DNA of 64,000 nt from an uncultured Chloroflexia bacterium (GCA_963729175.1 CAVSMY010000010.1:264291-328290), one strand, 5' to 3'. Shown: positions 24,674 to 58,515, counted from the stretch's first letter. Translations and numbers: made by a program. The notes: a model not told the origin generated them from the sequence alone.

Positions 24674-25594
24674 TCAGGGGGAGGGTCGGCTGGATGACGT
24701 AGCCGGAAGGTGCCGAACGGCCCATGCATCGAGGACGGCATCGGAGAGGGCGGGCCAGGCGGTCAGCGCCCACGGGCCGAACTCGCGGTCGGTCAGGCAG
24801 GCCAGCGCGAGGCCGGCATCAGGGTCGACCCACAGGAACGTGCCGGCGCCGCCGAAGTGCCCGAACGTCCGAGGCGAGTTCGCCGACCCCGTCCAGTGGG
24901 GGACCTTGGCGTCGCGGATGTCGACTCCGAGGCCCCAGTCCATCGGGTCGTACCGCCCGAAACCCGGCAGGATGCCGCGCAGCCCGGGGAACGCGACGCT
25001 GGTCATGAGCCGGACCGACGATGGTGCGAGGACCCGGGGCCGCAGCAGCTCTGCGCCGAAGCGGGCGAGCTCGCTGACCGGTCCCCACAGCCCCGCCGAC
25101 GGCCGCTCCCGGAGCTCGGTCCGCTCGATCCCGAGAGGGCGGAGCAGACGCCCGGCGAGGACCGCCGCGAACGGCTCGCCGGCCCGCTCCGCGACCAGCT
25201 CCCCGAGCATGTCGAACCCGGCGTTCGAGTAGATCCGGGTCCGCTCCGGCAGGCTGATCGGCTGGCGACCCTCGAACGGCAGGCCCGACGCGTGGGCGAG
25301 CAGATGGCGGACGGTCGCGCCGGGCGGCCCGGCCGGCTCGTCGAGGTCGATCGTCCCGGCCTCGACCTCGAGCAGGACGACCGCGGCGGTGAACGGCTTC
25401 GTCACCGAGGCCCACCGGAAGATCCGGTCGACATCGCCTCGCGAGGCCACCGGACCGTCTGGAGCGACGACGATCGCGGCGGCGTGGTCGACCTCCCAGC
25501 CGTCGATCGCCTCGAGCGCGACCGCCACGCGCGCGGCGGGGACGAGCGCGGCGGATCCGCCCGCGGCGCGCGGATCCGGGTCGGCGGATGTCAT
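24674..25594 (-). CDS. Serine hydrolase, beta-lactamase (class C-related) family
   Basis: SVTKPFTA (S-x-x-K) and YSNAGF (Y-x-N) motifs. 306 aa. ATG at 25594. Confidence 0.8.
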   Translation of the reverse strand: MTSADPDPRAAGGSAALVPAARVAVALEAIDGWEVDHAAAIVVAPDGPVASRGDVDRIFRWASVTKPFTAAVVLLEVEAGTIDLDEPAGPPGATVRHLLAHASGLPFEGRQPISLPERTRIYSNAGFDMLGELVAERAGEPFAAVLAGRLLRPLGIERTELRERPSAGLWGPVSELARFGAELLRPRVLAPSSVRLMTSVAFPGLRGILPGFGRYDPMDWGLGVDIRDAKVPHWTGSANSPRTFGHFGGAGTFLWVDPDAGLALACLTDREFGPWALTAWPALSDAVLDAWAVRHLPATSSSRPSP

Positions 25595-25648
25595 CGGGCC
25601 AAGTCTGCGACCTCCCGGGGGCGGTCCGCTTCGCGGTACGCTCGCCGC

Positions 25649-26473
25649 ATGACCGATCCAGGCGGCCCGGCCCTCCGCACCGTCGCGGCGACCCGCTACG
25701 TGACGCCGCTCCGGGAGGGCGGCTCGCTGCCCGGGTTGATCGAGGCCGATGACGACGGGCTGTACGTCCTGAAGTTCCGTGGCGCGGGCCAGGGTGTCCG
25801 GGCGCTGACCGCCGAGGTGATCGCCGGCGAGGTCGGTCGGACCCTCGGTCTCGCCGTCCCGGAGCTCGTCCTCGTCGAGCTCGATCCCGCGCTCGGGAAG
25901 GCAGAGCCCGACAGCGAGATCCGCGAGCTCATCGTCCGGTCGCCCGGGCTGAACCTCGGGCTCGACTTCCTGCCCGGTGCCCTGCCGTTCGATCCGGCGA
26001 GCGGCCCGGTCACGGACCCCGACCTGGCCGCCTCGATCGTCTGGCTCGATGCACTGCTCACGAACCCCGACCGCTCGGCGCGGAACCCGAACCTGTTGCG
26101 CTGGCACGGCCGGCTGTTCTGCATCGACCACGGCGCGGCGCTCTACATCCATCACACCTGGCGCGACCCCGAGGCTCACGCGGTCGGTCGCTTCCCGCCG
26201 ATCCGGGATCACGTCCTGCTGCCCTTCGCGAGCTCGATCCCCGAGGCCGAGGCACGGCTCGCGCCGTTGCTCGACGCCCCGACCCTCGCGGCGATCGTCG
26301 CGCTCGTCCCCGACGACTGGCTGGTCGAGGGACCGGTCGCCGACGGGTCGTCGCCCGGCGCCACGCGGGCCGCCTATCTCCACTACCTGGTGACCCGCCT
26401 CGGGGGCCCGAGGGCCTGGGTCGAGGAGGCCGAGCAGGCCCGCCTGGAGGCGATCGAACGTGCCGTCGCCTGA
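25649..26473 (+). CDS. Kinase-like protein with HipA/PI3-4K-type catalytic-loop motifs (putative Ser/Thr kinase)
   Basis: 274 aa. NPDRSARNPNLL and CIDHGAAL resemble the D-x-H-x-x-N catalytic loop and DFG-like motifs of HipA and PI3/4-kinase-fold proteins. The 3' end overlaps the next gene by 14 nt. Confidence 0.55.
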   Translation: MTDPGGPALRTVAATRYVTPLREGGSLPGLIEADDDGLYVLKFRGAGQGVRALTAEVIAGEVGRTLGLAVPELVLVELDPALGKAEPDSEIRELIVRSPGLNLGLDFLPGALPFDPASGPVTDPDLAASIVWLDALLTNPDRSARNPNLLRWHGRLFCIDHGAALYIHHTWRDPEAHAVGRFPPIRDHVLLPFASSIPEAEARLAPLLDAPTLAAIVALVPDDWLVEGPVADGSSPGATRAAYLHYLVTRLGGPRAWVEEAEQARLEAIERAVA

Positions 26474-26879
26474 GCCGCGCGGCGCCACGCGGGCGCCGTT
26501 CGAGTACGCCGTCCTCCAGGTGGTGCCGGACCTCGAGCGCGATGAGCGCCTGAACGTCGGGCTCGTGCTGATGTGTCGGCCGCGCCGCTTCCTCGGGGCC
26601 CGCGTCGAGCTCGACGCGACGCGTCTCGCGGCGATCGCGCCGGGCTGCGATCCCGCGGCGATCGCGGCCCACCTCGACGTCGTCAGCCGGATCGCGGCCG
26701 GCGACCCGAGCGGTGGACCGATCGCCCGGCTCCCATACCCGGAGCGGTTCCACTGGCTCGTGGCGCCCTCGTCGACGATCGTCCAGCCCTCGGCCGTCCA
26801 CACCGGTCTGACGAGCCAGCCCGGCCGGGAGCTCGACCGCCTGTTCGGGCGCCTCGTCTCCGCCCCTCGGTCGAGCTGA
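26460..26879 (+). CDS. DUF3037 domain protein, translationally coupled to the upstream kinase-like gene
   Basis: FEYAVLQVVPDLERDERLNVGLVLMC matches DUF3037 (PF11236) from memory. GTG start inside the kinase stop region. Confidence 0.6.
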   Translation: MPSPEPRGATRAPFEYAVLQVVPDLERDERLNVGLVLMCRPRRFLGARVELDATRLAAIAPGCDPAAIAAHLDVVSRIAAGDPSGGPIARLPYPERFHWLVAPSSTIVQPSAVHTGLTSQPGRELDRLFGRLVSAPRSS

Positions 26880-26889
26880 GCCGGATCGG

Positions 26890-26913
26890 CGCTGCGATGT
26901 CGCTGCAGCGCCC
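26890..26913 (+). terminator. Hairpin (attenuator or terminator) between DUF3037 and the zinc peptidase
   Basis: GCGCTGC-gatgtcgct-GCAGCGC. Confidence 0.3.
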
Positions 26914-26994
26914 GGCCCCGGTCGTGGCGGCGCCCCGTGACATCGTCGGTGGCAAGATGACGGCGCGCGCCCGAGCGTGGGAGGAAGCCGCTCG

Positions 26995-27873
26995 ATGACA
27001 CTCGACCCGAATGCCCATCTCGATCCGAGTCAGATCCGCGACGTCCGCGGCCGCCGGATCGGCGGCGGGACGATGGCGCTGGGAGCCGGCGGGGGCGGCA
27101 TCACGCTCCTCATCATCCTCGTCTACACGCTGCTCGGTGGGAACCCCGGCGACCTGACGGACCTGACCGGGACGACGATCGGCGACCAGCCGGTCGCCAG
27201 CGGCGCGGCCTCCGAGTGCACCAGCGGTGCCCAGGGCAGCACCCGCGACGACTGCCGGATCGTCGGCTACGTGAACAGCGTCCAGGCGTATTGGGATCAC
27301 GAGTTCCAGAGCGCCGGCGAGACGTATGAACCGGCCCAGACGACCTTCTTCACCCAGGCGATCCAGACCGGCTGCGGCACCGCCAGCGCCGACAGCGGGC
27401 CGTTCTATTGCCCCGCCGACGGCTATGTCTACCTCGACCTCGGGTTCTTCGACGAGCTCCGAACCCAGTTCGGCGCGCAAGGCGGCCCGCTCGCACAGGC
27501 CTACGTGATCGCCCACGAATACGGCCATCACGTCCAGGACCTCCTCGGCATCCTGCGGCAGACCTCCGGGGGCTCGGGCGCGGGCAGCGATTCGGTCCGG
27601 ACGGAGCTCCAGGCCGACTGCTTCGCCGGGGTCTGGGTCGACCATGCCCAGGGCACCGGGTATCTCGAGCCGGTCACCCAGGCCCAGATCTCGGATGCCC
27701 TCGATGCGGCCTCCGCGGTCGGTGACGACCGGATCCAGCAGAGCGTCCAGGGCGTCGTCAACCCCGAGACATGGACCCACGGGTCGTCGGAACAGCGGCA
27801 GCGCTGGTTCCTCACCGGCTACAAGGCCGGGGACCCGAACGCCTGCGACACGTTCAACGCGACCAACCTCTGA
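26995..27873 (+). CDS. Neutral zinc metallopeptidase (YpfJ/PF04228 family)
   Basis: N-terminal TM segment. HEYGHH zinc-binding motif and a conserved QADCFAG block. GGGAGGA SD upstream. Confidence 0.85.
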
Positions 27874-27982: not shown

Positions 27983-28969
27983 ATGCGCGCCTCGCGTCTC
28001 GTCTCGCTGCTCCTGCTGCTCCAGACGCGCGGTCAGCTGACCGCCGCCGAGCTCGCGCGCGAGCTGGAGGTCTCCGTCCGGACGGTCCACCGTGACGTCG
28101 AGGCGCTGGCGGAGTCAGGCGTCCCGATCTACGCCGAGCGCGGCCCGCACGGCGGCATCCGGCTCGTCGACGGCTATCGGACCCGCCTCACCGGCCTGAC
28201 CCCCGACGAGGCCGAGGCGATCTTCCTCTCGGGACTGCCCGGACCCGCGGCCGAGCTCGGGCTCGGGACGGTGGTCGCCGCGGCTCGCCTCAAGGTCCTG
28301 GCTGCGCTGCCGACGGAGCTTCGGGCGCGGGCCTCGCGGCTGGTCGAGCGGTTCCACCTCGACGCCGCGTACTGGTTCGATACGGGCGAGCCGGTCCCGA
28401 ACCTGGCGCTCGTCTCGGAGGCCGTCTGGGAGGGCCGCCGGCTGGAGATCGAGTACGACCGTGGCGAGGTGGTCGCCCGGGTCATCGACCCGCTCGGCTT
28501 GGTGATCAAGGGCGGCGTCTGGTATCTCGTCGCCCTGAGCGACGGCCAGACCCGGACGTACCGCGTCTCGCGCGTCGTCTCGGCGAGCATCCTCGACGAG
28601 CGGGTCGTCCGGCCGCCGGACTTCGACCTGGCGACGTACTGGGAGGAGTCGAGCGCGGCGTTCGAGCGCGACGTCCCCCGGATCACGATCATCGTCCGCG
28701 TCCGACCCGATCGGATGGACAGCCTTGCGCGGGCCGTCGGCAGTCGCGCGGTGAGAGCTGCCGAGACCCTCGACCGGCCCGACCCGGAAGGCTGGCACCA
28801 CCTCCGGATCCGGCTGGCGTGGCCGGACGAGGCGGCCTCGATCCTGCTGGCTGGTGGATCCGACATCGAGGTCCTCGAGCCGGCCGACGTCCGCGAACGG
28901 ATCGTCCGGAAGGCCGGTCGGATCCTCGAGCGCTACGGGGTGACTTCGCCGGTCCCGACCGGCCGATGA
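27983..28969 (+). CDS. WYL-domain transcriptional regulator (HTH-WYL-WCX; PafBC/CapW/BrxR-like)
   Basis: N-terminal wHTH (LTAAELARELEVSVRTVHRDVEAL), central WYL region (GGVWYLVAL), C-terminal extension. Confidence 0.85.
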   Translation: MRASRLVSLLLLLQTRGQLTAAELARELEVSVRTVHRDVEALAESGVPIYAERGPHGGIRLVDGYRTRLTGLTPDEAEAIFLSGLPGPAAELGLGTVVAAARLKVLAALPTELRARASRLVERFHLDAAYWFDTGEPVPNLALVSEAVWEGRRLEIEYDRGEVVARVIDPLGLVIKGGVWYLVALSDGQTRTYRVSRVVSASILDERVVRPPDFDLATYWEESSAAFERDVPRITIIVRVRPDRMDSLARAVGSRAVRAAETLDRPDPEGWHHLRIRLAWPDEAASILLAGGSDIEVLEPADVRERIVRKAGRILERYGVTSPVPTGR

Positions 28970-29221
28970 GGATGCGACCGCGTCGGTCGTGAGGCCGGCC
29001 GGGCGAGCGTGGCGACGCGCCCGGCGGCGGCCTTGATCTCCTGGACGAGGGCGTGATCGCGGGCATAGTCCTCGATCCGCCGCTGTCGCTCGACGTGGAG
29101 TGCATGGGTGAGCTGGTGCTGTGGGAGGAGCATCGGGCCTGTCCTCGTGCCTGCGATCGGCGGTCGATCGCGTGGTCTCGCTGGTTTCCCAGACCCTACC
29201 GCCTGAACCTGCCAGGTTCTG

Positions 29222-30481
29222 TCATGAACTAGCCAGGATGGTCGGATCGGCCCGGACGACGTCCCCCACGTCGCCGCGGAGGGCCGGATGGATCAGCCCG
29301 ACAAGGCCCGGGACCGCGATGCACGCCGCCGCAGCCAGCGCGACGAGCTCGACCGGCGATCCCGTCAGGGCGATGCCGGCGAGCGCTCCGCCGATCGGCG
29401 GGGTCGACTGCATCAACGTCCGGAGCGACGCGAAGACGCGGCCCCGCATCGCCGGCGGGATGAGCCGCATCCGGATCGTCTGGGCCCAGATCGTCAGGGG
29501 CGAGACGAGCAGCCCGAACACGGCGAGCATGACGAGCGTCCCGGCAAGGGCCGGGCGAAGCGCCAGGCCGGCCAGGACGATCCCGGCGCTCGCCTGGGCG
29601 ATGGCGACGGAACGGCCGAGTGGCCAGCGCCAGCGGATCGCCCCGACCACGGTCGAGCCGAGCAGCATCCCCGCGGTCATCGCGCTGACGAGCGCGCCGT
29701 ACGTGGCGGCATCGCCGGCCAGGACCTCGCGGGCGATCGTCGGGAGGAGGACGAGCAGGGCGCCCTCGCCGATGTTCGCGCCCATGAACATCAGGGTGAT
29801 CGCGAGGATCGCCGGGGTCGTGACGATGAACACGAAGGCCGGCCGGAGGCCACGGGCGGCCGCATCAGGAGACCCGTCCTCGTCCGCGTCGCGTGGATCG
29901 CGGCCGCGCCAGCGCATCGCGACCAGGCAGCCGACGAAGACCGCGTAGCTCGCGGCATCGACGAGCAGGACCCACCGCGCCCCGACGAAGCCGATCAGGA
30001 TGCCGGCGATCGCCGGACCGGCGAGCCCGCCCAGCGAGTAGCTGATCGTCTCCATCGCGTTGGCCGTCTCGAGCCGGTCGCTCGGGACGAGCGAGGGGAG
30101 CATCGACGGGATCCCCGCAAGGCTGACCATGTAGAGCAGCCCGTAGACCGCGGCGACGACGAACAGCCAGCCCGATCCGAGGATGCCGAGGCCGGCCGCG
30201 ACCGGCACCGACGCGACGGCGAGCCCCCGGATCGTGTTGTCGGCGATGAGGACCCGGCGCTTGTCGAAACGATCGAGGACGAGGCCGGCGGCGAGCCCGC
30301 CGACGATGACCGGCGCCGTGTAGCAGACGACCAGGAGGCCGACGTCGGCCGACCCGCCGCCGAGCTCATAGACGAGCCAGACGAGCGTCACCCACGACAG
30401 GCCATCGCCGAGGATCGATGCCGTGGCTCCGAGCCACAGCAGGGCGAAGTCCCGGTGTCGGAGCAGTTCGAGGTATCGCAT
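29222..30481 (-). CDS. MFS transporter
   Basis: 12 TMS. MFS motif GLVLDRFDKRRVL. Confidence 0.85.
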   Translation of the reverse strand: MRYLELLRHRDFALLWLGATASILGDGLSWVTLVWLVYELGGGSADVGLLVVCYTAPVIVGGLAAGLVLDRFDKRRVLIADNTIRGLAVASVPVAAGLGILGSGWLFVVAAVYGLLYMVSLAGIPSMLPSLVPSDRLETANAMETISYSLGGLAGPAIAGILIGFVGARWVLLVDAASYAVFVGCLVAMRWRGRDPRDADEDGSPDAAARGLRPAFVFIVTTPAILAITLMFMGANIGEGALLVLLPTIAREVLAGDAATYGALVSAMTAGMLLGSTVVGAIRWRWPLGRSVAIAQASAGIVLAGLALRPALAGTLVMLAVFGLLVSPLTIWAQTIRMRLIPPAMRGRVFASLRTLMQSTPPIGGALAGIALTGSPVELVALAAAACIAVPGLVGLIHPALRGDVGDVVRADPTILASS

Positions 30482-34640: not shown

Positions 34641-34919
34641 GTGACCTACGACGATCTGCTCAAGCTTGCTCGTCGAGCCGAGGGTCAGACCCTCGAGACC
34701 GTCACCGGACGCCGGTTCACGGTCGGGATCTACCTCGACTGCCCGTTCTTCACGCCGGCCTCGAGCGGTCTCGGGCGGAGCGATGGCCGGCGGGCGGCCG
34801 AGGCGTTCGTCGAGCGGTACACCGCCACCGGCAGCCTCCGGCCCGCCGACTACGCTCGGACGACCCGCAACGCCTCGTACTTCATCGGGCTCGTCCTGTG
34901 GGGCATGTCGCATCCTTGA
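34641..34919 (+). CDS. Hypothetical small protein (92 aa)
   Basis: GTG start. GC3-biased codons. MTYDDLLKLARRAEGQTLETVTGRRFTVGIYLDCPFF... Confidence 0.45.
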   Translation: MTYDDLLKLARRAEGQTLETVTGRRFTVGIYLDCPFFTPASSGLGRSDGRRAAEAFVERYTATGSLRPADYARTTRNASYFIGLVLWGMSHP

Positions 34920-35098
34920 CCCAGCGTCCTCTGACTCTGAGGCCGTGGATGGCCCATCCGATGTCCTGGTCGACGGCCCCACCGCGCTCACGGTCGAGTT
35001 CACGTCGCCCTCCGGCGGCATCGTCCCCGACGAGTCCGACATCATGCAGACGTTGACCTTCACGTCCTAGGCGTCCCGGAGCGCCCGCCGCTCGCCTG

Positions 35099-35449
35099 TC
35101 AGCCGATGTCGACCACGCAGAAGCGATTGCCCTCGGGGTCGGCCAGGATCACGTAGTCGGCGTCGGGCGGGCGCTTGTCCCAGTGGACCTCGGTGGCGCC
35201 CAACCCGATCAGGCGCTCGACCTCGGCCGCCTGGTCCTCCGCGTACAGGTCGAGGTGGATCTTCGGCGGGATCTGGACCGGCGCCCGGACCTGATCGAGG
35301 GACAGATTCGGGCCCGCGCCATCGTGGGGTCGCAGGATCGCGAAGTCGCCGTCGCGATGCCCGACCTCGTAATCAAGGGCGGCCGTCCAGAACGCGATCT
35401 GGCGCTCGGTGTCCTCGGTCCGGATGACGATCGAGCCGACGCGCAGCAT
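35099..35449 (-). CDS. VOC (glyoxalase/bleomycin-resistance/dioxygenase) family protein
   Basis: 117 aa, VOC-fold signature. Directly downstream of the ribosomal-protection gene. Confidence 0.75.
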   Translation of the reverse strand: MLRVGSIVIRTEDTERQIAFWTAALDYEVGHRDGDFAILRPHDGAGPNLSLDQVRAPVQIPPKIHLDLYAEDQAAEVERLIGLGATEVHWDKRPPDADYVILADPEGNRFCVVDIG

Positions 35450-35474
35450 GGCCCGAGGATATCGCCGGATCACC

Positions 35475-37481
35475 TCAACCGCGACGGACGAGATGCGCCA
35501 GCCACGCGTCCCGGTCGAGGGGGCTCGGAGCGGTCCGCTCGCGCCGCGGCGGCGACACCGGGACCGGCTGGTAGCCACCGGGCCGGGTCTCGATCACGCC
35601 TTCGCCGCCGGTCAGGCCCGACAGCTGATGCTGGAGATCGCGGACCCGGGCCACGGGCAGGACGGCGTCGACGGTCGAGAGCCCGTTCGCCGAGAACTGG
35701 CTCCGGACCCGTCCCCCGAGACGTCCGAGGGCGGCGAGGACCCCTGGAGCGCTGGCCGACGGCATCTCGAGGGCGGCTGTGACGAGCGGCTCGCAGACCC
35801 ACGTCCCGGCCTGTTCCAGGGCCGTCATGAGGACCAGCTGGGTGAGCCGGCGGAAGTCGGCCGGGGTGGTGGTCGGCGACATGTAGCCGCAGTCCCACAT
35901 CGTCACTCGGCAATCATTCACCTGCCAGCCGCTCAGCCCCTCGGCCAGCGCCTCGCGGACGTAGACCTCCATCTGCTGGGTCATCGCCTCGACGGTCCGG
36001 TAGATGTACAGCGGGACGAGCCGGACCTCGACATCGAGCCGAAACTCGATCCCCGATCCGGGCGGGAGCGGTTCGATGCGGAGGCCGCTCGTCGCGGGGA
36101 ACGGGTTCGTGCTGAGCGGCGAGCTCCGACCGGTGATGTTCGACTTCGAGCGGGCGTGGATCACTTCGTCGGCCGAGCCGGTCCGGGCCGGCCACTCCAT
36201 GCACAGGGTCGTCGTCTCGCGGAAGTCGGCCTCGATCCCGTAGTCGCGCAGGAGGGTCGCCCCGATGACCTCCTTCTGGACGTCGCCGTAGAGCGAGACG
36301 GAGATCTCGTGCCGGCGGTCGTCCTGCCGGACGTTGATGAGGGGGTCCTGCTCGGCCAGCTGTGACAGCGCCGCGCGGAGGCTGCCGCTCTGCTCCGGAT
36401 GGACCGCGTAGACGACCGACTCGAGGGTCGGCAGCGGGAAGTGCCGCTCGGTCGGATCGACCGGGGCCTCGCCGATCGCGTCGCCCACCTGGACGGCGCC
36501 GAGCCCCCAGACCCGGGCCATCTGACCGGCGGTCACCGACGCACGACCCGGCACGGGCCCGGGCAGGAAGGTGCTGATGGACGACGGCTTGGCCTCGGTC
36601 TCGCCGATCCAGACGCGGCGGCGAGGTCTCAGCGCGCCGGAGAAGAGCCGGACGTAGGCGACCCGTTCGCCCGACGCCGTCCGCTCGATCTTGAACACCC
36701 GACCGGAGACGGGCCCGTCCGGGACACCATCGGAGGCCGGGAGGAGCTCGGCGATGCCCGTGAGCAGCGCATCGATCCCCTGGCCGTTCATCGCCGACCC
36801 CGCGAAGACCGGGTGGACCAGACCCTGGCGCGTCTGGCGGGCGAGCGCGCGCCGGAGCCGGGGGCCGGTCAGCGCGGCCTCGTCGGTGAGGTAGTCGCGG
36901 AGGAGCGCCTCATCCCGCTCCGCGAGGGTCTCGGCAAGACGCTGGCGGAAGGCCGGGTCGTCATCGTCGCAGCGCGAGAAGGTGGCAGCCTTCGTGCCCG
37001 GGTCATGGACGGTCCCCATCGCCAGGACGCCCGGCGACAGCCGGCGCGCCATCGCGGCGAGGACGCGTCGATCGTCGGCCCCCGCGCGGTCGATCTTGTT
37101 GAGGAAGATCAGGGTCGGGACGCCCATCCGCCGGAGGGCCCGCATGAGCAGCGGTGTCTGGGGCTGGACGCCCTCGACGGCCGAGACGACGAGGACCGCC
37201 CCGTCGAGCACGCCAAGGACGCGCTCCACCTCGGCGATGAAGTCCGGGTGGCCGGGCGTGTCCACGAGATCGACCGCCAGGTCGCCGATCGCGAACGTCG
37301 CGACCGCGGAGCGGATGGTGATGCCGCGTTCGCGCTCGAGGTCGAGGAAGTCGGTCTGGGTGGTGCCGGCGTCGACGCTGCCGATCGAGGCGATCGCGCC
37401 GGAGGTGTAGAGAAGGCGCTCGGTGAGAGTGGTCTTACCGGCGTCGACGTGAGCGAGGATGCCGAGATTTAGGGTGCGCAT
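35475..37481 (-). CDS. Ribosomal protection protein, Tet(M)/Tet(O)/OtrA-like translational GTPase (EF-G family)
   Basis: 668 aa. G1 AHVDAGKTT, G3 DTPGH, G4 NKID. Domain organisation EF-G-like without the EF-G insertion. Confidence 0.85.
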   Translation of the reverse strand: MRTLNLGILAHVDAGKTTLTERLLYTSGAIASIGSVDAGTTQTDFLDLERERGITIRSAVATFAIGDLAVDLVDTPGHPDFIAEVERVLGVLDGAVLVVSAVEGVQPQTPLLMRALRRMGVPTLIFLNKIDRAGADDRRVLAAMARRLSPGVLAMGTVHDPGTKAATFSRCDDDDPAFRQRLAETLAERDEALLRDYLTDEAALTGPRLRRALARQTRQGLVHPVFAGSAMNGQGIDALLTGIAELLPASDGVPDGPVSGRVFKIERTASGERVAYVRLFSGALRPRRRVWIGETEAKPSSISTFLPGPVPGRASVTAGQMARVWGLGAVQVGDAIGEAPVDPTERHFPLPTLESVVYAVHPEQSGSLRAALSQLAEQDPLINVRQDDRRHEISVSLYGDVQKEVIGATLLRDYGIEADFRETTTLCMEWPARTGSADEVIHARSKSNITGRSSPLSTNPFPATSGLRIEPLPPGSGIEFRLDVEVRLVPLYIYRTVEAMTQQMEVYVREALAEGLSGWQVNDCRVTMWDCGYMSPTTTPADFRRLTQLVLMTALEQAGTWVCEPLVTAALEMPSASAPGVLAALGRLGGRVRSQFSANGLSTVDAVLPVARVRDLQHQLSGLTGGEGVIETRPGGYQPVPVSPPRRERTAPSPLDRDAWLAHLVRRG

Positions 37482-37540
37482 GGAGCCTCATGCCTTCCAA
37501 GGAGGTGGTCACCTTCTGGCTGGTCACGAGTGCTCCCATG
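37435..37540 (-). CDS. Candidate leader peptide (35 aa) overlapping the start of the ribosomal-protection gene
   Basis: ATG preceded by AAAGGAGCG SD. MGALVTSQKVTTSLEGMRLHAHPKS... ends 46 nt inside the main ORF in another frame. Confidence 0.3.
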
Positions 37541-37703
37541 TCGCTCCTTTCCGGTGTCGATGGTGTGTCTGTGTCGCAGAAGAGAGTGCCACGGCCGGTC
37601 AACACGATCCGACCGCCGGATCGGCGCGCGCAGCGATCTCGTCCGCTCTCACGACGATGAGGCGTGAGGACGGGTAGATCGCCGGGATGGCGACGACCGT
37701 TCG

Positions 37704-38087
37704 TCAGCCCTTCGGCTGGACGACCGCGAGGACGTTGCCGCTCGGGTCGACGAACCAGGCGGCCCACGAGTGACCCATGTCGGCGATGCCGTCGGTCGTG
37801 ACGGGATCCGGGGCGACGTACTCCTCGATCCGGACGCCACGAGCACGCAGATCCGCGAGCGCCGCATGGATGTCCGACACGCGCCACGCAGCCTGCGTCT
37901 GGGTGTCGCTGGTCCCGACCGTGCTGAGGGTCACGACCAGCTGGGATCCACCGCCGCTCCGGAAGACGATCCGGTCGCCCGCGTCCTCGCGGGCGATCTC
38001 GAGGCCCAGGACGCCGTGATAGAAGTCGCGGCTGGCGTCGAGGTCTTTGGCGAGGAGGATCGGGAAGACGAGGTGCTCGCTCAACAT
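37704..38087 (-). CDS. VOC (glyoxalase/bleomycin-resistance) family protein
   Basis: 127 aa. VFPILLAKDLDASRDFYHGVLGL... Confidence 0.8.
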   Translation of the reverse strand: MLSEHLVFPILLAKDLDASRDFYHGVLGLEIAREDAGDRIVFRSGGGSQLVVTLSTVGTSDTQTQAAWRVSDIHAALADLRARGVRIEEYVAPDPVTTDGIADMGHSWAAWFVDPSGNVLAVVQPKG

Positions 38088-38688
38088 CGTTGGTGCTCCA
38101 TGGCGTATCGGTCGCGCGGCGACCGCGGCCGGTGGCCGGGTACGGGGTCGACCACGAGAGCGTGCCGCATCGAGCGCCGCCGCGCGCTGGCGCGATCCTT
38201 GGCGGCGATTTGGGAACCATCAGCCACCCGACGACGCCATCCATCATGAGCCGGTCATCCGTGCTCGACCCGCGTCCTGGGGGACTCCCGGCGGCGACGG
38301 ACTCCTGAGCGTCGCCGCCGGGAGGGGATGCGAGGCAGAACCGGGGGCCATCGTCTACCGGTTCGCGGGTTGCGTGGCGTGCGTCGGAGGCCTAGCATCG
38401 TCTGGTCTGCTGGAGTCACGATCACGGCCCGCCACGCACCCCGGCGAGGGCCGCTCTGCAGGCGCCCAGAGGAGGTATCCGAACACCGGTCACGCATCGT
38501 CGGTGGGCGCCTCTGCCGGGGGGCGACGGGACACCTGATCCCGGATGACCGACGTCCGATCCACCTGCACGCTGTGGTCCCGATCCACGAGGTCCGTCTC
38601 GTCGGACGATCGCCGGTCGAGGCTCACACGAAGTTCGCGTCGCTACTCCCGTGGGGTACCACGGTCCTGCTGAGAGGAGACTCGCTCG

Positions 38689-43668: not shown

Positions 43669-44109
43669 TCAGCTGAGTCGCTCGGCCAGTCCGACGATGA
43701 TGCCCTCGGGGCCGCGGACGTAACAGAGCAGGTAGCTGTCCTCGTACCGCACCAGCTCGCCGATGAGCTCGGCGCCGTGGGCCTCCAGGCGGGCGAGGAC
43801 GTCCGCGATGTCGTCGACCGCGAACATGATGCGACGGATGCCCAGGGCGTTCACCGGCGCGTCTTCCGGCTCGGCCCTGACCGCCGCTGGCGTGTGGAAC
43901 TTGTCCAGCTCGATCCGCCCGTGGCCGTCCGGGGTCCGCATCGAGGCGATGGTGGCTCGGACGCCGTCGAGCCCGATGAGGCGGTCGACCGACCGGCCCT
44001 CGACGACCGTCTCGCCCTCAAGCTCCAGGCCGAGTTCGGCGAAGAACGCCTTTACAGCCTCGAGGTCGTCGACGACCAGGAGGACGTTATCCATCCGCAG
44101 AACAGTCAT
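43669..44109 (-). CDS. VOC (glyoxalase) family protein
   Basis: 146 aa. MTVLRMDNVLLVVDDLEAVKAFFAELGLE... Confidence 0.8.
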   Translation of the reverse strand: MTVLRMDNVLLVVDDLEAVKAFFAELGLELEGETVVEGRSVDRLIGLDGVRATIASMRTPDGHGRIELDKFHTPAAVRAEPEDAPVNALGIRRIMFAVDDIADVLARLEAHGAELIGELVRYEDSYLLCYVRGPEGIIVGLAERLS

Positions 44110-44154: not shown

Positions 44155-44832
44155 TCAATCGACGTACTGGAGCGGCGTGACCACGAAGTCGTCCGGCAGC
44201 TTCACGCCGGTCGCATGGTTCGGGCAATAGCCGTACGGGTTCTTGTCGAGGTACTGCTGGTGGTAGTCCTCGGCGAAGTAGAACGCCGGCGCGGGCGGCC
44301 CGACGATCTCGGTCGTGATCGCCCCGTAGCCGGCCGCCGAGAGCCGCTCCTGATACATCGCCCTGGACGCCTCCGCGGCGGCGCGCTGGGCCGCGTCGTG
44401 GACGAAGATCGCAGACCGATACTCGCTCCCGCGGTCATTGCCCTGGCGCATGGACTGGGTCGGGTCGTGGCTCTCCCAGAAGACCTTGAGCAGTGCCTCG
44501 TAGGTCGTCACCGACGGGTCGAAGACCACGCGCACGGTCTCGGCATGACCCGTGCGGCCCGTGCACGACTCCTCGTACGTCGGGTTCGGCGTGGAGCCGC
44601 CCTCGTAGCCGACGGCGGTCGTCCAGACGCCGGGCTGCTGCCAGAACGCCTTCTCCTCGCCCCAGAAGCAGCCGAGCGCGAACTCGGCGATCCGCGAGCC
44701 GGCCGGGTACGGGCCGCCGATGGGGGTGCCGAGGACGCGGTGCGTGCCCGGCGTCATGATCGGCGACGATCGCCCGGGGAGGGCATCGGCGGGAGACGGG
44801 ATGGCGTCGGGCTTGGAGCTGAAGAACCTCAT
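44155..44832 (-). CDS. msrA: Peptide methionine-S-sulfoxide reductase
   Basis: GCFWG active-site motif and overall MsrA signature. 225 aa. Confidence 0.9.
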   Translation of the reverse strand: MRFFSSKPDAIPSPADALPGRSSPIMTPGTHRVLGTPIGGPYPAGSRIAEFALGCFWGEEKAFWQQPGVWTTAVGYEGGSTPNPTYEESCTGRTGHAETVRVVFDPSVTTYEALLKVFWESHDPTQSMRQGNDRGSEYRSAIFVHDAAQRAAAEASRAMYQERLSAAGYGAITTEIVGPPAPAFYFAEDYHQQYLDKNPYGYCPNHATGVKLPDDFVVTPLQYVD

Positions 44833-47372: not shown

Positions 47373-47975
47373 TCAGACGCGCTTGCCCTGGGCCCGCAGC
47401 TCGGCCTTCTTCGCCCGCTTGCCGGCCTGGTATGCGGCCAGCGACTCGGCCGAGTCGACGTCGCCCAGGGTCGGCCACGTCGGCGCGACGTCATCCCAGC
47501 CCGGCGGCTTGACGCCGAACTTCTTGCCGAGGATCGCGATGAGCGTCTTGGCCTTCATCTCGCCGATCCCCGGCAGGTCCATGAGCCGGGCCTCCAGGTC
47601 CTTGCCGTCACGGGCCTCGGTCCAGACACGGGCCACATCGCCGTCATAGCGCTCGGCGATGTAGGCCGCGAGCTTCTGGGTCTTCTCGGCGAAGCTGCCG
47701 GGGAAGCGGTGGAGCGCCGGCGGCGTCCGGAAGGCCGTCGCGAGGACCTCCGGGTCGATCGCGGCGATCTTCTTCGCGTCGAGCGTGCCGATCCGCCGCT
47801 GAAGCTCGAGCGGTCCCGAGAAGGCCTTCTGGACTGTGACCTGCTGATCGAGCAGGAAGCCGATGACGAGGGCCATCGGATCGGCGACGAGCAGTGCGTC
47901 GGCGTCGGGATCCCCGGTGAACGGCAGGCTCGGGGATCGCGTCGTGTCGGAGGTCGATGCCTTGGCTGCGGTCAT
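47373..47975 (-). CDS. HhH-GPD-like base-excision-repair-type protein (putative)
   Basis: LMDLPGIGEMKAKTLIAILGKKFGV helix-hairpin-helix. ~200 aa. Start position ±2 nt. Confidence 0.5.
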   Translation of the reverse strand: MTAAKASTSDTTRSPSLPFTGDPDADALLVADPMALVIGFLLDQQVTVQKAFSGPLELQRRIGTLDAKKIAAIDPEVLATAFRTPPALHRFPGSFAEKTQKLAAYIAERYDGDVARVWTEARDGKDLEARLMDLPGIGEMKAKTLIAILGKKFGVKPPGWDDVAPTWPTLGDVDSAESLAAYQAGKRAKKAELRAQGKRV

Positions 47976-48174
47976 GGGGTCGATGCTACAGCCGTCCGAG
48001 CCGCTTCGGGGACGAGGACGGCTAGCGCGGCCGGCGCGATGCCAGCTTCGAGCCGCCCGCACCGACGTGGCATCCAGGGCGGCTCCGTGCGGGCTGGTCA
48101 GAGCTTGCGGCCGCAGGGCAAGATGGGCGGCCACGCCGCCGTTGAGGGAAGGCGGCCGAGTCGCAGGGGGACGT

Positions 48175-51100
48175 GTGGGCGACGGGGTCGACCAGGTCAG
48201 GCCGCCGGACGGGGTCAGGCCGCCGGACGGGTCCTGCCACATCTGCGGGACGGCGAACCCGGCCGGGGATCGCTTCTGCGGGTCGTGCGGGGCGGCTCTT
48301 GGTCGGGTCTGCGCCGCCTGCGGGACGCCCGCGCCGGCGACATCCAAGTTCTGCGGGTCCTGCGGGGCGGCGCTCGAGGCGCCTTCGGTCGCGGCGCGGG
48401 GATCGCCAGCGGCCACCGCGACCGCCGAGGCGCTCGAGGAGCGCAGGGTCGTGACCGTCGTCTTCGCCGACCTGGCGGCGTCGACCGAGCTTGCCACCCG
48501 CCTCGACCCCGAGGAGCTGCGGGGCGTCCTGCAGCCGTTCTTCCGGGCGATGAAGGAGGAGGTCGAGCGCCACGGCGGGACGATCGAGAAGTTCATCGGC
48601 GATGCTGTCGTCGCGGTCTTCGGCTATCCGGCCGCGCATGACGACGACCCCGAGCGAGCGGTCCGGGCTGCCCTGGCGATGCAGGTCCGCATGCCGAAGC
48701 TTCGGGCCGGACGGGCCGACGAAGCGGCGTTGCTGACCCTGCGCGTCGCCGTCAACACGGGCGACGTCCTGGCCGCCCACGGCGCGGCGCACGAGGGCTT
48801 CGTGACCGGCGATGCCGTGAACCTCGCGAGCCGCCTCCAGGCCGTGGCGCCGGCAGGTTCTGTCGTCGTCGGGGAGCGGACCTATCGCTCGACCCGCCAC
48901 GCGATCGCGTACCAGGCCCGCGAGGACGTCCCGGTCAAGGGCGTCGAGCGGCCCGTGCCGATGTGGGAAGTGGTCGCCGGCGCGCCGCAGCCCGCGGAGT
49001 CCTTCGGCGCCGATGCGCCGATCGTCGGCCGCGAGCGCGAGCTGGCCCTCCTGGCCGCCGTCCTCGACCGCGCAGCCGACGAGGGCTCGGCGGCGCTCGT
49101 GTCGATCGTCGGCCCGCCCGGGATGGGCAAGAGTCGGCTCGCGAACGAGTTCGCGACCAACGCCGGGACGTCGGCGAGGGTCGTCCGCGCGCGCTGCCAG
49201 CCATTCGGCGGCGGGATCGGCTACTCCCCCCTGGCCGCGATCCTCTGGGACGATGCTGCGATCCTGGAAAGCGATCCGACCTCCACCGTCGAGGCGAAGG
49301 CCCGTGCCGTCGTCCAGCCTCGGTTCGGCGGGGTCGACGCCGAGCGGACGACCGACGTCCTGCTGTCGTCGATCGGCACGATGACGGGCACAGACCCACT
49401 CATCGGGCTGGAGGCGTCGGCCGCCAGGCGAGCGATCGCAGCGGCGTGGCGTCGGTACCTCGGATCGATCACGCGGACCGCGCCGCTCGTCGTCGTCCTC
49501 GAGGACATCCACTGGGCAGAGGCCAGCCTCCTGGAGCTGCTGGAGTCGCTCGCCGCGGGGGTATCCGGCCCGCTCGTGCTGGTCTGCACGGCGCGACCCG
49601 AGATCTTCGAGCGCCGCGCGAGCTGGGGTGGAGGGCTCGCGAACGCGAGCTCGATCTCCCTCCGCCGCCTGTCGATCATGGAAGGCGAGGCACTCATCGG
49701 ACACCTCCTCGGCGGGCCTCCACCGCCCCAGGTCGTCGGGCCGCTGCTGGGACGCTCCGAGGGCAACCCCTTCTTCGTCGGCGAGCTGCTTCGGATGGTC
49801 GTGGAGGATGGCACGCTCCGGCGCGATCCAGGCGGCTGGACGCTCACTCGGGAGGTCCCGACCGAGCTGCCGGACACGGTCCAGGGCGTCATCGCATCGC
49901 GGCTCGACCTCCTGCCGGCCGAGCAGAAGCGGGTGGTCCAGGACGCCGCCGTCGTCGGCCGGATCTTCTGGGCGGGCGCGATCGTGCGGCTCGGCGGTCC
50001 GGTGGCCCTGGCGGCCCTGCCCGAGCTCCTCGATAAGGGGCTGATCCGAGAGCGCGACTCCTCGGCCGTCGAAGGCGAGCGAGAGCTGATCTTCAACCAC
50101 ATCCTCATCCGCGACGTCGCCTACGCCAGCGTCCCGCGGCGTCGCCGTCGGGAGGCTCACGGCGAGGTCGTCGCCTGGCTGGAAGCCGTCGCCCGCGGCC
50201 GCGACGAGACGCTCTCGGAGGCCCTCTGGTACCAGGCATCCGAGGCGGGCGACGACCGACGCTCGGCCCGCTATGCGATGCTCGCCGGCCACCGCCATCG
50301 CCGCGTGTTCGCGGCGGACGATGCGCTCCGCTGGTATGACCGGGCGGTCGACGCCCTCGACGCGATGCCGCCCGACGACGCATCGCTCCCGCTCATCGAG
50401 ACGACGCTCTCGCGGGCCGAGGCAGCCGTCCAGCTCGGACACCTCGAGGCCGCACGGGCCGACTGCGAGCGCGCGCTCGCGGCCGCCAGGACGCGCCCAC
50501 CGGGCAGCCGCGAGTGGCTCGAAGGCCGGGCCCTGGCCGCCCTGGTCGAGGTCCTCTGGGCCGAGGAGCGCTACGACGACGCCGAGGCCCTGCTGCCCGA
50601 AGCCCTCCTGGCAGCGCGGGACCAGCTTGCCGACGACCTCATCGGCCGGTTGCTGTGCGGGACCGGCCGCGTGGCCCTCGATCGCGGCCGCCCGACCGAG
50701 GCACTGTCGCGCTTCGAGGAAGCGCTCGCCGTCGCGGAAGACGCCGAGGATCGCGAAGGCCAAGCGCTCGCGCGCATGGGTCTCATGGAGGTCCGACTGG
50801 CCGTCGGCCCGTTCGAGGACGGGCTGGACCAGGGCCGCCGCGCCGAGGCTCTGCTGCGGGCCCTCGGACAGCGACCACTCGTCCATCGAGCGGAACGGAC
50901 CATGGCCGCCCTCCACTGGCTCGAAGGGCGGTACGCCGAGGCGCGCGACCTCGCCGAAGCCGCCGTGACCGGGGGCCGCGACGTCGGGACCCGAGCCGAC
51001 CTCTCCGGGGCGCTGTCCGTCCTCGGCCTCGCCGACCTCGCGCTCGGCGACATCGAGGGTGCCAGGCGATCGGCGGACGAGGCGGTCGCGATCGCGCTGG

Positions 51101-51429
51101 AGCTGGGTTCGACACGGCTCGAGCTCACGGTGCGGGCCGCTCGGGTCGTCGTCCTGGCCGAGCTCGGGGCGCGCGACCCGCTGGCCGTGGACGTCGAGGC
51201 CGGGCTGGCGGCCAGCGCCACCCTCGGCCGGCCGGCGATGGCCCGCCCGTTCCTTGCCGGACGCGCCTGGCTCGAAGCCCGCGACGGTGACGTACCGGCC
51301 GCTCGCGAGACCCTTGCGGCCGCCGCCGAACTCGGATCCGACGATCGGCTCGCCGAGGCCCTGGCCGACCGGGTCGCCGTTCTAGTCCTTGGTGCCTCCG
51401 GGATGTCCGAGGCGCGCGCTCAGGCGTAG
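48175..51429 (+). CDS. STAND-type signalling protein: double zinc ribbon, class III adenylyl/guanylyl cyclase, AAA/NB-ARC ATPase, then TPR array
   Basis: CHICGTANPAGDRFCGSCGAAL and CAACGTPAPATSKFCGSCGAAL. Cyclase VTVVFADLAAST...FIGDAVVAVFG...VAVNTGDV. P-loop GPPGMGKSRL. Long alpha-helical, TPR-like C-terminus. GTG start inferred. An 18-bp tandem duplication (VRPPDG x2) lies at ~48199-48234. Confidence 0.85.
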   Translation: MGDGVDQVRPPDGVRPPDGSCHICGTANPAGDRFCGSCGAALGRVCAACGTPAPATSKFCGSCGAALEAPSVAARGSPAATATAEALEERRVVTVVFADLAASTELATRLDPEELRGVLQPFFRAMKEEVERHGGTIEKFIGDAVVAVFGYPAAHDDDPERAVRAALAMQVRMPKLRAGRADEAALLTLRVAVNTGDVLAAHGAAHEGFVTGDAVNLASRLQAVAPAGSVVVGERTYRSTRHAIAYQAREDVPVKGVERPVPMWEVVAGAPQPAESFGADAPIVGRERELALLAAVLDRAADEGSAALVSIVGPPGMGKSRLANEFATNAGTSARVVRARCQPFGGGIGYSPLAAILWDDAAILESDPTSTVEAKARAVVQPRFGGVDAERTTDVLLSSIGTMTGTDPLIGLEASAARRAIAAAWRRYLGSITRTAPLVVVLEDIHWAEASLLELLESLAAGVSGPLVLVCTARPEIFERRASWGGGLANASSISLRRLSIMEGEALIGHLLGGPPPPQVVGPLLGRSEGNPFFVGELLRMVVEDGTLRRDPGGWTLTREVPTELPDTVQGVIASRLDLLPAEQKRVVQDAAVVGRIFWAGAIVRLGGPVALAALPELLDKGLIRERDSSAVEGERELIFNHILIRDVAYASVPRRRRREAHGEVVAWLEAVARGRDETLSEALWYQASEAGDDRRSARYAMLAGHRHRRVFAADDALRWYDRAVDALDAMPPDDASLPLIETTLSRAEAAVQLGHLEAARADCERALAAARTRPPGSREWLEGRALAALVEVLWAEERYDDAEALLPEALLAARDQLADDLIGRLLCGTGRVALDRGRPTEALSRFEEALAVAEDAEDREGQALARMGLMEVRLAVGPFEDGLDQGRRAEALLRALGQRPLVHRAERTMAALHWLEGRYAEARDLAEAAVTGGRDVGTRADLSGALSVLGLADLALGDIEGARRSADEAVAIALELGSTRLELTVRAARVVVLAELGARDPLAVDVEAGLAASATLGRPAMARPFLAGRAWLEARDGDVPAARETLAAAAELGSDDRLAEALADRVAVLVLGASGMSEARAQA

Positions 51430-58343: not shown

Positions 58344-58379
58344 CGTCGGTCTCCGTTCAAAGTCCGCGCCTGGACGCGG

Positions 58380-58495
58380 CGTCGTACACTGGTCGGGTCG
58401 GCTCGTACAGTGTTCGAGTCGACGAATGAAGGGAGGCTACTCGTACGGTGTGCGAGTGTCAAGGACAGTGTACCACTACCTCGTACGACGTTCGA
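58380..58495. promoter_or_regulatory. Divergent promoter/operator region with five copies of a CGTACASTG half-site
   Basis: cgtacactg (58383), cgtacagtg (58404), cgtacggtg (58442), cagtgtacc (58466, inverted), cgtacgacg (58482). AT-enriched. Confidence 0.5.
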
Positions 58496-58515
58496 CGTAG
58501 TCGGCCGTCGGACAG

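Follow-up and report, generated by a model that had tools for sequence, protein, structure and literature searches.

This report concerns a gene for a ribosomal protection protein (RPP)-like GTPase and a short upstream open reading frame (uORF) that leads into it, both located in a 64,000-nucleotide stretch of DNA from an uncultured Chloroflexia bacterium (GCA_963729175.1, CAVSMY010000010.1:264291-328290). The whole stretch is hereafter called the window and all positions are counted from its first letter. Judged by comparison with related loci, the leader formed by the uORF looks like an on-switch, not previously described, for a widespread class of resistance-like genes. The GTPase gene, the uORF and two flanking genes of the VOC family had been named in a preliminary description made from the sequence alone and were all found where it had placed them (Table 1); they are co-directional on the minus strand, in DNA with a GC content of ~71% throughout the window. 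The uORF is directly preceded by AAAGGAGCG, and the strong Shine-Dalgarno (SD) sequence noted for it in the preliminary description is present. The ATG of the GTPase gene lies inside the uORF, and the overlap described for the two frames exists but measures 47 nt when the stop codon is counted (44 nt of sense codons), not 46 nt. A spacer of 164 nt separates the upstream VOC gene from the uORF. The start of the downstream VOC gene is uncertain, lying either at most 22 nt past the stop codon of the RPP gene or in overlap with that gene, and in the window the two genes are probably co-transcribed.

Table 1. Positions of the features discussed in the text, main features first and more distant genes last.
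Feature	Position	Strand	Basis or remark
OtrA-like RPP-family GTPase gene, 668 aa	35475..37481	minus	Pfam, NCBIfam, PDB comparison, neighbour-joining tree
Leader uORF, 34 sense codons + TAA, peptide MGALVTSQKVTTSLEGMRLHAHPKSRHPRSRRRR followed by the stop	ATG 37539 to TAA 37437-37435	minus	sequence, conservation
SD sequence of the uORF, AAGGAG, 4 nt 5' of the ATG	37544..37549	minus	sequence; alignment of 78 loci
Predicted leader hairpin, 5' arm: tail of the uORF SD sequence, uORF AUG and first ~5 codons	37522..37544	minus	minimum free energy folds, RNAalifold
Predicted leader hairpin, 3' arm, with main-ORF SD sequence GAGG (37486-37489) and start codon (37479-37481)	37476..37494	minus	folding
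P-loop codons GGT-AAG (Gly15-Lys16), holding the uORF stop TAA	37434..37439	minus	codon counts
TTGACC-N5-GTGGCAC motif 5' of the leader	37586..37602	minus	alignment with Chloroflexota loci
Upstream VOC gene, 127 aa, Glyoxalase + Ble-like_N	37704..38087	minus	Pfam
Downstream VOC gene, Glyoxalase_6, 91 bits	35099..35452	minus	Pfam
APH-family gene	7557-8903		28 kb from RPP gene
PF00144 beta-lactamase-family gene	24674-27001	minus	8.5 kb from RPP gene
PF00144 beta-lactamase-family gene	60033-61370		23 kb from RPP gene

Identity of the GTPase

Five domains of the type known from elongation factor G (EF-G) were assigned to the window GTPase by Pfam (GTP_EFTU, EF-G_D2, EFG_III, EFG_IV and EFG_C), and the GTPase motifs G1-G5 are intact (AHVDAGKT, RGITI, DTPGH, NKID and GSA). 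The top NCBIfam models were those for Otr(A) (636 bits) and the tet_protect equivalog (630 bits); the TetM/W/O/S model scored 399 bits, and the EF-G models reached 174-253 bits, below their cut-offs of 513-890 bits. In a sequence comparison with the PDB, TetO (356 bits) and TetM (333 bits) were aligned end to end, whereas EF-G (214 bits) was aligned over the G domain only. A neighbour-joining (NJ) tree was constructed from the window protein, 81 relatives, two EF-G sequences as outgroups and six Tet proteins encoded on annotated plasmids (Tet(M), Tet(O), Tet(W), Tet(S), Tet(Q) and TetB(P)). It separates the RPP clade from EF-G with 100% bootstrap support and splits the RPPs into a classical mobile group and an 81-member high-GC soil group (100%), the window protein falling into the latter. 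The preliminary description had proposed a ribosomal protection protein and not a housekeeping EF-G, and the hidden Markov model scores, the alignments with TetO and TetM and the tree bear this out: on the sequence evidence the window GTPase groups with the Tet(M)/Tet(O)/Otr(A) RPPs and not with EF-G, and it is a further member of an already known RPP family. A large otr(A)-related clade in Actinobacteria has already been described by Berglund et al. (PMC7725328).

The window protein is 32-36% identical to the mobile Tet proteins, 27-28% to EF-G and 54% to one actinobacterial member, which is itself 52% identical to Otr(A) of S. rimosus (RGI). Its closest homologues, with at most 78% identity, come from Chloroflexota metagenome-assembled genomes (MAGs) labelled Limnocylindrales/Limnocylindria or 'uncultured Chloroflexia'. 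At least 8000 homologues were found at E <= 1e-10, and 585 relatives were confirmed among the candidate stretches of species-representative genomes.

Loop III of domain IV, the sequence of which is GYMSPTTTPADFR, was compared with that of TetM and EF-G. Its tip reads Y-M-S-P-T-T-T-P-A-D-F-R in the window protein and Y-Y-S-P-V-S-T-P-A-D-F-R in TetM, so that the Ser and Pro residues and the TPADFR segment are retained, while Tyr507 is replaced by Met and Val510 by Thr. The HDVDS translocation motif of EF-G is absent from domain IV of the window protein, which has Y-M-S-P-T-T where EF-G has Y-H-D-V-D-S. In the TetM-ribosome structure of Arenz et al. from 2015 the Ser-Pro tip of loop III reportedly contacts the tetracycline site, and Pro509 of this loop is reported as the contacting residue in the published TetM structures. 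Relative to TetM, 11 residues are inserted before loop I and 7 residues in loop II. Many members of the clade from Streptomyces, Nonomuraea and Kribbella carry a ~12-residue insertion in loop III (e.g., YAPRQSHSHGVFDKSMSST) and have no Ser-Pro there (loci L063, L066, L076, L077 and L082 are examples), whereas in the Chloroflexota members, the window protein included, the loop is short as in TetM.

The leader reading frame and its predicted structure

For the analysis of the leader, 81 related loci were compared, one for each GTDB species together with one ENA contig. The preliminary description had held that its reading would suffer if the uORF were missing from orthologous loci; a strict scan detected an SD-preceded ORF of 34-38 codons in 76 of 82 loci, and a relaxed one did so in 79. 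Its carriers span the Chloroflexota, Actinomycetota, Acidobacteriota and Pseudomonadota. The region 5' of the GTPase gene is conserved in Chloroflexota, Streptomyces, Kribbella, Nonomuraea, Gaiellaceae, Thermoleophilia and Rubrobacter, and the same conserved leader is present in one Vicinamibacterales (Acidobacteriota) MAG and in one Burkholderiales MAG. When the loci were scanned without regard to frame, 77 of the 79 SD-proximal starts lay in one frame relative to the GTPase gene, at distances of 73, 76, 79 or 82 nt, which points to insertions and deletions in multiples of three. Either AAGGAG or GGGAG is kept at the position of the uORF SD sequence in the alignment of 78 loci.

The encoded peptide follows the pattern M-R-x-A-F-M-S-I...E-(G/D)-M-T...P-G-A-(C/R)-R-R-R in the Actinomycetota and M-G-A-x-M-S-S-Q-K-V...R-R-R-R in the Chloroflexota, with synonymous variation at the conserved residues Arg2, Ala and Ser (Arg2 being encoded by CGC, CGA, CGT, CGG or AGG). 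Because the uORF frame stays open for 270 codons in the 71% GC DNA of the window, the uORF is not beyond chance expectation when the window is considered alone, and its significance derives from its conservation in related loci. By these comparisons the uORF is a conserved, selected coding sequence. The Rfam scan of the leader returned chance-level matches only and no matching family, and in the limited collection of literature searched a description of a leader for otr(A)-like or actinobacterial 'tetM' genes was not found.

The end of the uORF is embedded in the P-loop of the GTPase, the codons GGT-AAG (Gly-Lys of GKT) forming its TAA stop. The P-loop Gly codon is GGT in 77 of the 80 leader-bearing loci, as compared with 3-29 of 80 at four further Gly codons that are likewise invariant. 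Where a leader-bearing locus has GGC instead (three cases), the Val-Asp position always reads GTT-GAC, creating a TGA three codons earlier; in the three loci that lack a canonical leader the codon is GGC or GGA and never GGT (P = 2e-4). Val6 is encoded by GTA in 45 and by GTC in 30 of the leader-bearing loci, both of which are read as Arg in the uORF frame, and in none by GTG; at other Val sites GTA occurs at most once. Similarly, the Ala8 codon is GCC in 70 loci, where the uORF frame then has Arg, and GCG in three, where it has Gly, and His5 is the rare CAT in 54 of 80. These codon choices imply that synonymous sites of the RPP gene are constrained to keep the Arg-Arg-Arg-stop of the uORF, and this dual-coding constraint is strong evidence that the uORF sequence matters and is translated; we therefore expect that it is translated in vivo.

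The CAT-GTA pair of many actinobacterial loci (main-ORF His-Val, within GCG CAT GTA GAC) additionally places an AUG-UAG start-stop in the third frame, within the overlap of uORF and RPP gene; the window differs in having CAC GTC. This start-stop may have arisen because Cys-Arg is retained in the uORF frame, or it may be a separate element. A programmed frameshift that would fuse the uORF to the RPP was considered and rejected, given that the main ORF has its own SD sequence and a conserved ATG, GTG or TTG start and that an in-frame TGA lies just 5' of the main ORF in most loci.

Upstream of the leader a motif of the form TTGAC(C/G)-N5-6-(C/A)GTG(G/C)(C/G)A(C/A) was found in Chloroflexota loci ~55-60 nt 5' of the uORF ATG, where it could be aligned in the window and in L091, L092, L004, L002, L003, L005-L008 and L029. 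The TTGACC motif is a candidate -35 element, a candidate regulator site, or both. No promoter was found by a scan with the sigma-70 consensus, at the TTGACC motif or elsewhere, but this consensus is poorly suited to a 71% GC genome and the missing match is therefore uninformative. A sigma-54 reading of TGGCAC-N5-TCTGC 5' of the leader was rejected, since the -12 element is not conserved in relatives.

The secondary structure of the leader RNA was predicted from 78 leaders using RNAalifold, which gave a stem between uORF codons 5-7 (UCAUGUCC) and GGACAUGA/GGGUAUGA, the latter segment overlapping the SD sequence and spacer of the GTPase gene. In the 8-bp core of this stem 90.5% of the cells are paired, as compared with 26-56% when the partner is slid by 1-3 columns, and double changes from U-A to C-G and from G-C to A-U are observed. 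The core is present in the minimum free energy (MFE) folds of 54-74 of the 78 sequences, and in individual folds it widens to a long hairpin reaching from the uORF AUG to the GTPase start codon. This extended hairpin is 77% paired (slid controls: 34-53%) and contains 68 double-change cells; the mean of 500 shuffles is 41, and none of them reached 68. The MFE of the window leader is -45.8 kcal/mol (z = -2.2). For the Chloroflexota subset RNAalifold gives the same stem as the MFE fold of the window, with AUGGGAGC..CGUGAC paired to GGCAUGAG.GCUCCAU and the two start codons facing each other.

The accessibility of the ribosome binding site (RBS) of the GTPase gene was calculated from the partition function. 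In free RNA its mean unpaired probability over the 78 sequences is 0.20 (11% in the window), and with a ribosome footprint placed on the uORF AUG or on codon 6 it rises to 0.42-0.44 (46% in the window), the rise being seen in 77 of 78 sequences, while a control footprint placed downstream leaves it at 0.20. Shuffled leaders have an accessibility of 0.42 against 0.20 for the native ones, which are the more strongly paired in 78 of 78 cases. In these models the first codons of the uORF appear to mask the SD sequence and start codon of the GTPase gene, and occupancy of the leader by a ribosome would release the RBS. No terminator-like site was found by a consensus scan of positions 34900-38400, and the overlap of the uORF with the GTPase start leaves no room for an intervening terminator. 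Of the translational attenuation "as in tet(M)" suggested in the preliminary description, the attenuation itself is thus structurally plausible, but a terminator of the tet(M) type is missing.

Proposed regulation and alternative explanations

On balance we favour the reading that the gene product is an OtrA-like factor by which ribosomes are released from an A-site inhibitor of the tetracycline type and that its translation is controlled by a ribosome-sensing leader. The GTPase would then probably be an intrinsic, inducible factor, and both a resistance activity and, more specifically, protection against tetracyclines are what its relationships would predict. In the free mRNA, the SD sequence and start codon of the RPP gene would be paired with the start codon and the first 5-8 codons of the 34-37-codon uORF. 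A ribosome initiating on the uORF, especially one held there by an inhibitor, would keep the 5' arm single-stranded, and the RBS of the RPP gene would then be exposed to a second, drug-free ribosome. During normal translation of the uORF, ribosomes would cross the RPP start and terminate 44 nt into the gene at the P-loop TAA, after which the hairpin would re-form. Tetracycline traps ribosomes at or near start codons, so that their footprint would fall exactly on the 5' arm of the hairpin, and a drug-dependent stalling would be expected here.

Several points weigh against this reading. Concerning the RNA, support from covariation is modest, because coding and the SD sequence place constraints of their own on both arms of the stem; the leaders compared are related by phylogeny, and it was their own MFE folds that yielded the extended structure; and the 8-bp consensus core has two mismatches in the window, where the longer clade-specific pairing carries the prediction. 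Concerning the protein, the scores of the window GTPase (636 and 630 bits) lie under both curated RPP cut-offs of NCBIfam (900 bits for Otr(A) and 775 bits for the tet_protect equivalog), as do those of 10 out of 10 actinobacterial clade members (708-768 and 684-735 bits, respectively), and the NCBI label of close relatives is merely 'translation factor GTPase family protein'. The loop III insertion of many actinobacterial members means that the clade may not share one substrate. The AlphaFold model of the GTPase is only of moderate quality (pLDDT 66, pTM 0.50), and a Foldseek comparison with the PDB does not separate TetM from EF-G; the best query TM-score was obtained with TetM (3j9y; 0.50, 31% identity) and was set aside and given no weight. 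Finally, an arrest by tetracycline needs no specific peptide, and the strong conservation of the uORF peptide is thus left unexplained by the model, which gives room for a role of the nascent chain or of a pause at termination.

This last point leads to a different view of the leader, which we hold to be possible but clearly less probable, namely that it represents a new family of regulatory nascent peptides, dual-coded with the P-loop, that serve as a peptide-dependent sensor of inhibitors of the tetracycline class or of other inhibitors of the small subunit. If so, it would be the first conserved translational attenuator known for ribosomal protection GTPases, moving together with the gene between phyla as an inducible cassette complete in itself, and a peptide that turned out to be an arrest sequence specific for a drug would bring a sensor of 30S inhibitors to a field dominated by sensors of macrolides and chloramphenicol.

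We regard it as rather improbable that the leader is a constitutive device and not a drug sensor, although the structural data fit both equally well. Translation of the uORF would in that case set the basal translation of the RPP gene by opening the hairpin or occluding the start, and any induction would be transcriptional, as with WblC/WhiB7 in Streptomyces. The promoter-proximal motif conserved 5' of the leader in Chloroflexota loci would suit such an arrangement, and there is a precedent in the chromosomal 'tetM' of S. coelicolor/lividans (SCO0783), a member of the antibiotic-induced WblC/WhiB7 intrinsic-resistance regulon that is transcriptionally activated by WblC in S. coelicolor (PMC7157823). 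A mere helicase-by-translation device, however, needs neither a peptide selected at both ends nor dual coding inside the RPP gene, and the travelling of the leader with the gene into Acidobacteriota and Pseudomonadota is a better fit to a self-contained cis-acting sensor than to host-specific control. The leader is moreover equally conserved in the Chloroflexota, although WhiB-type regulators are to our knowledge restricted to the Actinomycetota.

A role outside resistance, in which a stress-induced EF-G-family GTPase would rescue or remodel ribosomes and its leader would sense a general slowing of translation, appears unlikely for a protein that clearly branches with Tet/Otr and away from EF-G and that retains the Ser-Pro tip of loop III; genes of the Otr(A) clade are also treated as resistance genes in surveys (PMC7725328). 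The scores under the curated RPP thresholds are in its favour, as are the very wide distribution of the clade in chromosomes of soil bacteria that are not producers, the insertions in domain IV relative to TetM and the variation of loop III across the clade. A leader acting as a general sensor of translation stress would be the Chloroflexota/Actinomycetota counterpart of multi-drug-sensing uORFs such as toiL of E. coli (PMC12121999).

The genomic context was examined with regard to the proposal, made in the preliminary description, of a self-resistance or antibiotic-sensing cluster. Of 56 ORFs predicted in the 64 kb, 53 were scanned with Pfam, and no polyketide synthase, nonribosomal peptide synthetase, terpene or other biosynthetic core genes were found among them; biosynthetic core enzymes were not found in the related loci either. 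The APH-family gene and the two beta-lactamase-family genes that had been counted as part of such a cluster are present in the window but distant from the RPP gene and unlinked to it (Table 1), and the cluster proposal finds no support within the window.

The two flanking genes do have the VOC fold attributed to them (Pfam families Glyoxalase/Ble-like_N upstream, with Ble-like_N at 26 bits against a cut-off of 24.5, and Glyoxalase_6 downstream), but the sandwich of two VOC genes does not hold as a conserved unit. The upstream and downstream VOC are unrelated to each other in sequence and no informative homologue of either was found in NCBIfam or the PDB. The downstream VOC is confined to the window, with two weak matches in the 82 related loci, neither adjoining the RPP gene. 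The upstream type adjoins the RPP gene in the nearest relatives only: four of the five nearest-relative contigs, including P0002 and P0014, have a co-directional 128-aa Glyoxalase-family gene 67-103 nt downstream of the GTPase gene, three of the four with a weak match to Ble-like_N, so that VOC and RPP genes are linked in five of six nearest-clade contexts when the window is included. In L091 and L092 the 128-aa VOC that directly follows the RPP gene shares 72-75% identity with the upstream VOC of the window, and the adjacency has therefore survived a rearrangement. Conservation of the VOC flanks is not general: three weak VOC matches in all were obtained in the 82 related loci, and a VOC gene is absent at the L001 locus (76% identity). 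The closest orthologues of the upstream VOC (87-90%) are located in Chloroflexota MAGs behind an MFS gene that is accompanied by a divergent WYL regulator, and no RPP gene is present near them in the contexts L093-L095. By this distribution the upstream VOC would be a recurrent but non-obligate neighbour of resistance-type genes.

In L093-L095 the MFS protein belongs to Sugar_tr/TRI12 and the regulator to WYL/HTH_11, and a DUF2652 gene and a large adenylate-cyclase/STAND gene lie near the VOC gene; in the window, positions 27983-30481 encode a WYL regulator and MFS pair, and a cyclase/AAA_16/TPR gene is located at 47863-51429. A third VOC/glyoxalase gene is located at 43669-44094, and the presence of three VOC genes within 9 kb, mutually unrelated in sequence, lowers the weight of any single VOC adjacency.

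It is thus very unlikely that the RPP and the VOC proteins, with their bleomycin/mitomycin-binding fold, form a self-resistance or drug-handling module directed at one compound from a nearby biosynthetic cluster, even though the 127/128-aa Glyoxalase/Ble-like_N VOC stayed beside the RPP gene in the nearest relatives despite the swap of sides and its occurrence behind an MFS transporter gene elsewhere suggests a xenobiotic-related role: core genes are lacking in the window, the closest VOC orthologues lie away from any RPP gene, and the genome is rich in VOC genes.

Other neighbours in the window encode a zinc peptidase, a WYL regulator, an MFS transporter, a CAAX protease, an ArsR regulator, a BBE-type oxidase, a DUF1269-HhH protein, a hydrolase, an aldehyde dehydrogenase, the third VOC protein and MsrA. 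The RPP gene has a co-directional PMSR (MsrA) gene upstream of it in the window (44155-44832, minus strand) as well as in L001 (2663-3334), L091 (1616-2287) and L092 (993-1676), and further upstream L001, L091 and L092 have a GAF-histidine kinase, so that some synteny remains at the locus. The divergent gene pair at 56754-59340, ~19 kb away from the RPP gene, encodes a TetR-family regulator, the C-terminal domain of which is TetR_C_1 (tetracycline-repressor-like), and, on the minus strand, a 529-aa MFS_1 transporter, a classical arrangement of regulated efflux. The overlapping adjacent ORFs at 1750-2379 and 2321-3037 (plus strand) each encode half of an MFS_1 domain and may represent a frameshifted or mis-assembled transporter gene. 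Two further proteins have an unusual architecture: a GreA/GreB-domain protein with an N-terminal extension of ~275 residues (61430-62716, plus strand) and the 775-aa product of the beta-lactamase-family gene nearer to the RPP gene, in which the PF00144 domain occupies only residues 523-743.

Significance and comparison with known systems

Resistance by ribosomal protection is believed to have been mobilised from the large reservoir that Otr(A)-like genes constitute in the environment (PMC7725328). The leader offers a testable regulatory mechanism for these genes, and the combination of SD sequence, uORF and GGT-AAG stop provides a signature by which the gene class may be recognised and its inducibility predicted. 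The overlap of uORF and P-loop is in addition a clear case of dual-coding constraint on synonymous sites of an essential GTPase motif.

Among known proteins, Otr(A) and the Tet(M)/Tet(O)/Tet(W)/Tet(S)/Tet(Q)/TetB(P) group share with the window GTPase the five-domain EF-G-like organisation, the clade, the S-P tip of loop III and the TPADFR segment. The window GTPase is unlike the mobile Tet proteins in its low identity to them (32-36%), in the change of Tyr507 to Met and in the insertions at loops I and II. SCO0783, possibly a member of the clade, resembles it as a chromosomal gene unlinked to a biosynthetic cluster, its induction being part of the response to translation inhibitors. Streptomyces members of the high-GC clade with the same leader uORF were found at L045, L048, L063, L066 and L067. 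Compared with the Streptomyces members, to which it is ~52-54% identical, the window protein most likely comes from a Limnocylindria-like member of the Chloroflexota, and it is the Streptomyces proteins that have the 12-residue insertion in loop III. The upstream VOC protein resembles the bleomycin resistance protein BLMA and the mitomycin resistance protein MRD in its Glyoxalase/Ble-like_N fold, its small size (127 aa) and its position beside resistance-type genes; it differs from them in its low Ble-like_N score, in having no NCBIfam match and no informative PDB relative and in a linkage to the RPP gene that is confined to the nearest relatives.

With tet(M) of Tn916 the window has in common a short leader ORF 5' of an RPP gene and a proposed coupling of expression to the state of translation (bioRxiv 10.1101/2021.03.24.436905). 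The Tn916 model is one of transcriptional attenuation at a rho-independent terminator, for which that source cites Su et al. 1992. The Tn916 leader (orf12/Ptet) does not overlap the gene and its translation is disputed (bioRxiv 10.1101/2021.03.24.436905). In the window, by contrast, there is no terminator, the leader overlaps the start of the gene and the predicted structure masks the RBS; the window leader is not a transcriptional attenuator of the Tn916 tet(M) type.

The layout is instead that of a single-hairpin translational attenuator of the cat-86/cmlA type, as reportedly described by Lovett and Rogers in 1996. The leader peptide is not known to resemble the Erm, Cat or Cml leaders, although no search aimed at such a similarity was made. 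The attenuation logic of ermC has been described (PMC6685928), and like cat-86, cmlA and ermC the window has a short, SD-preceded leader ORF, an RBS paired with leader-ORF sequence and a predicted release by a ribosome held on the leader. Leaders of the window type differ from those of cat and erm in being longer (34-37 codons), in overlapping the gene by 44-47 nt and in ending within P-loop codons; the pairing involves the start codon of the leader itself, and the regulated gene encodes an RPP and not a methylase or an acetyltransferase. The leader thus represents a new variation on a known mode of regulation, and its dual-coding overlap is unusual.

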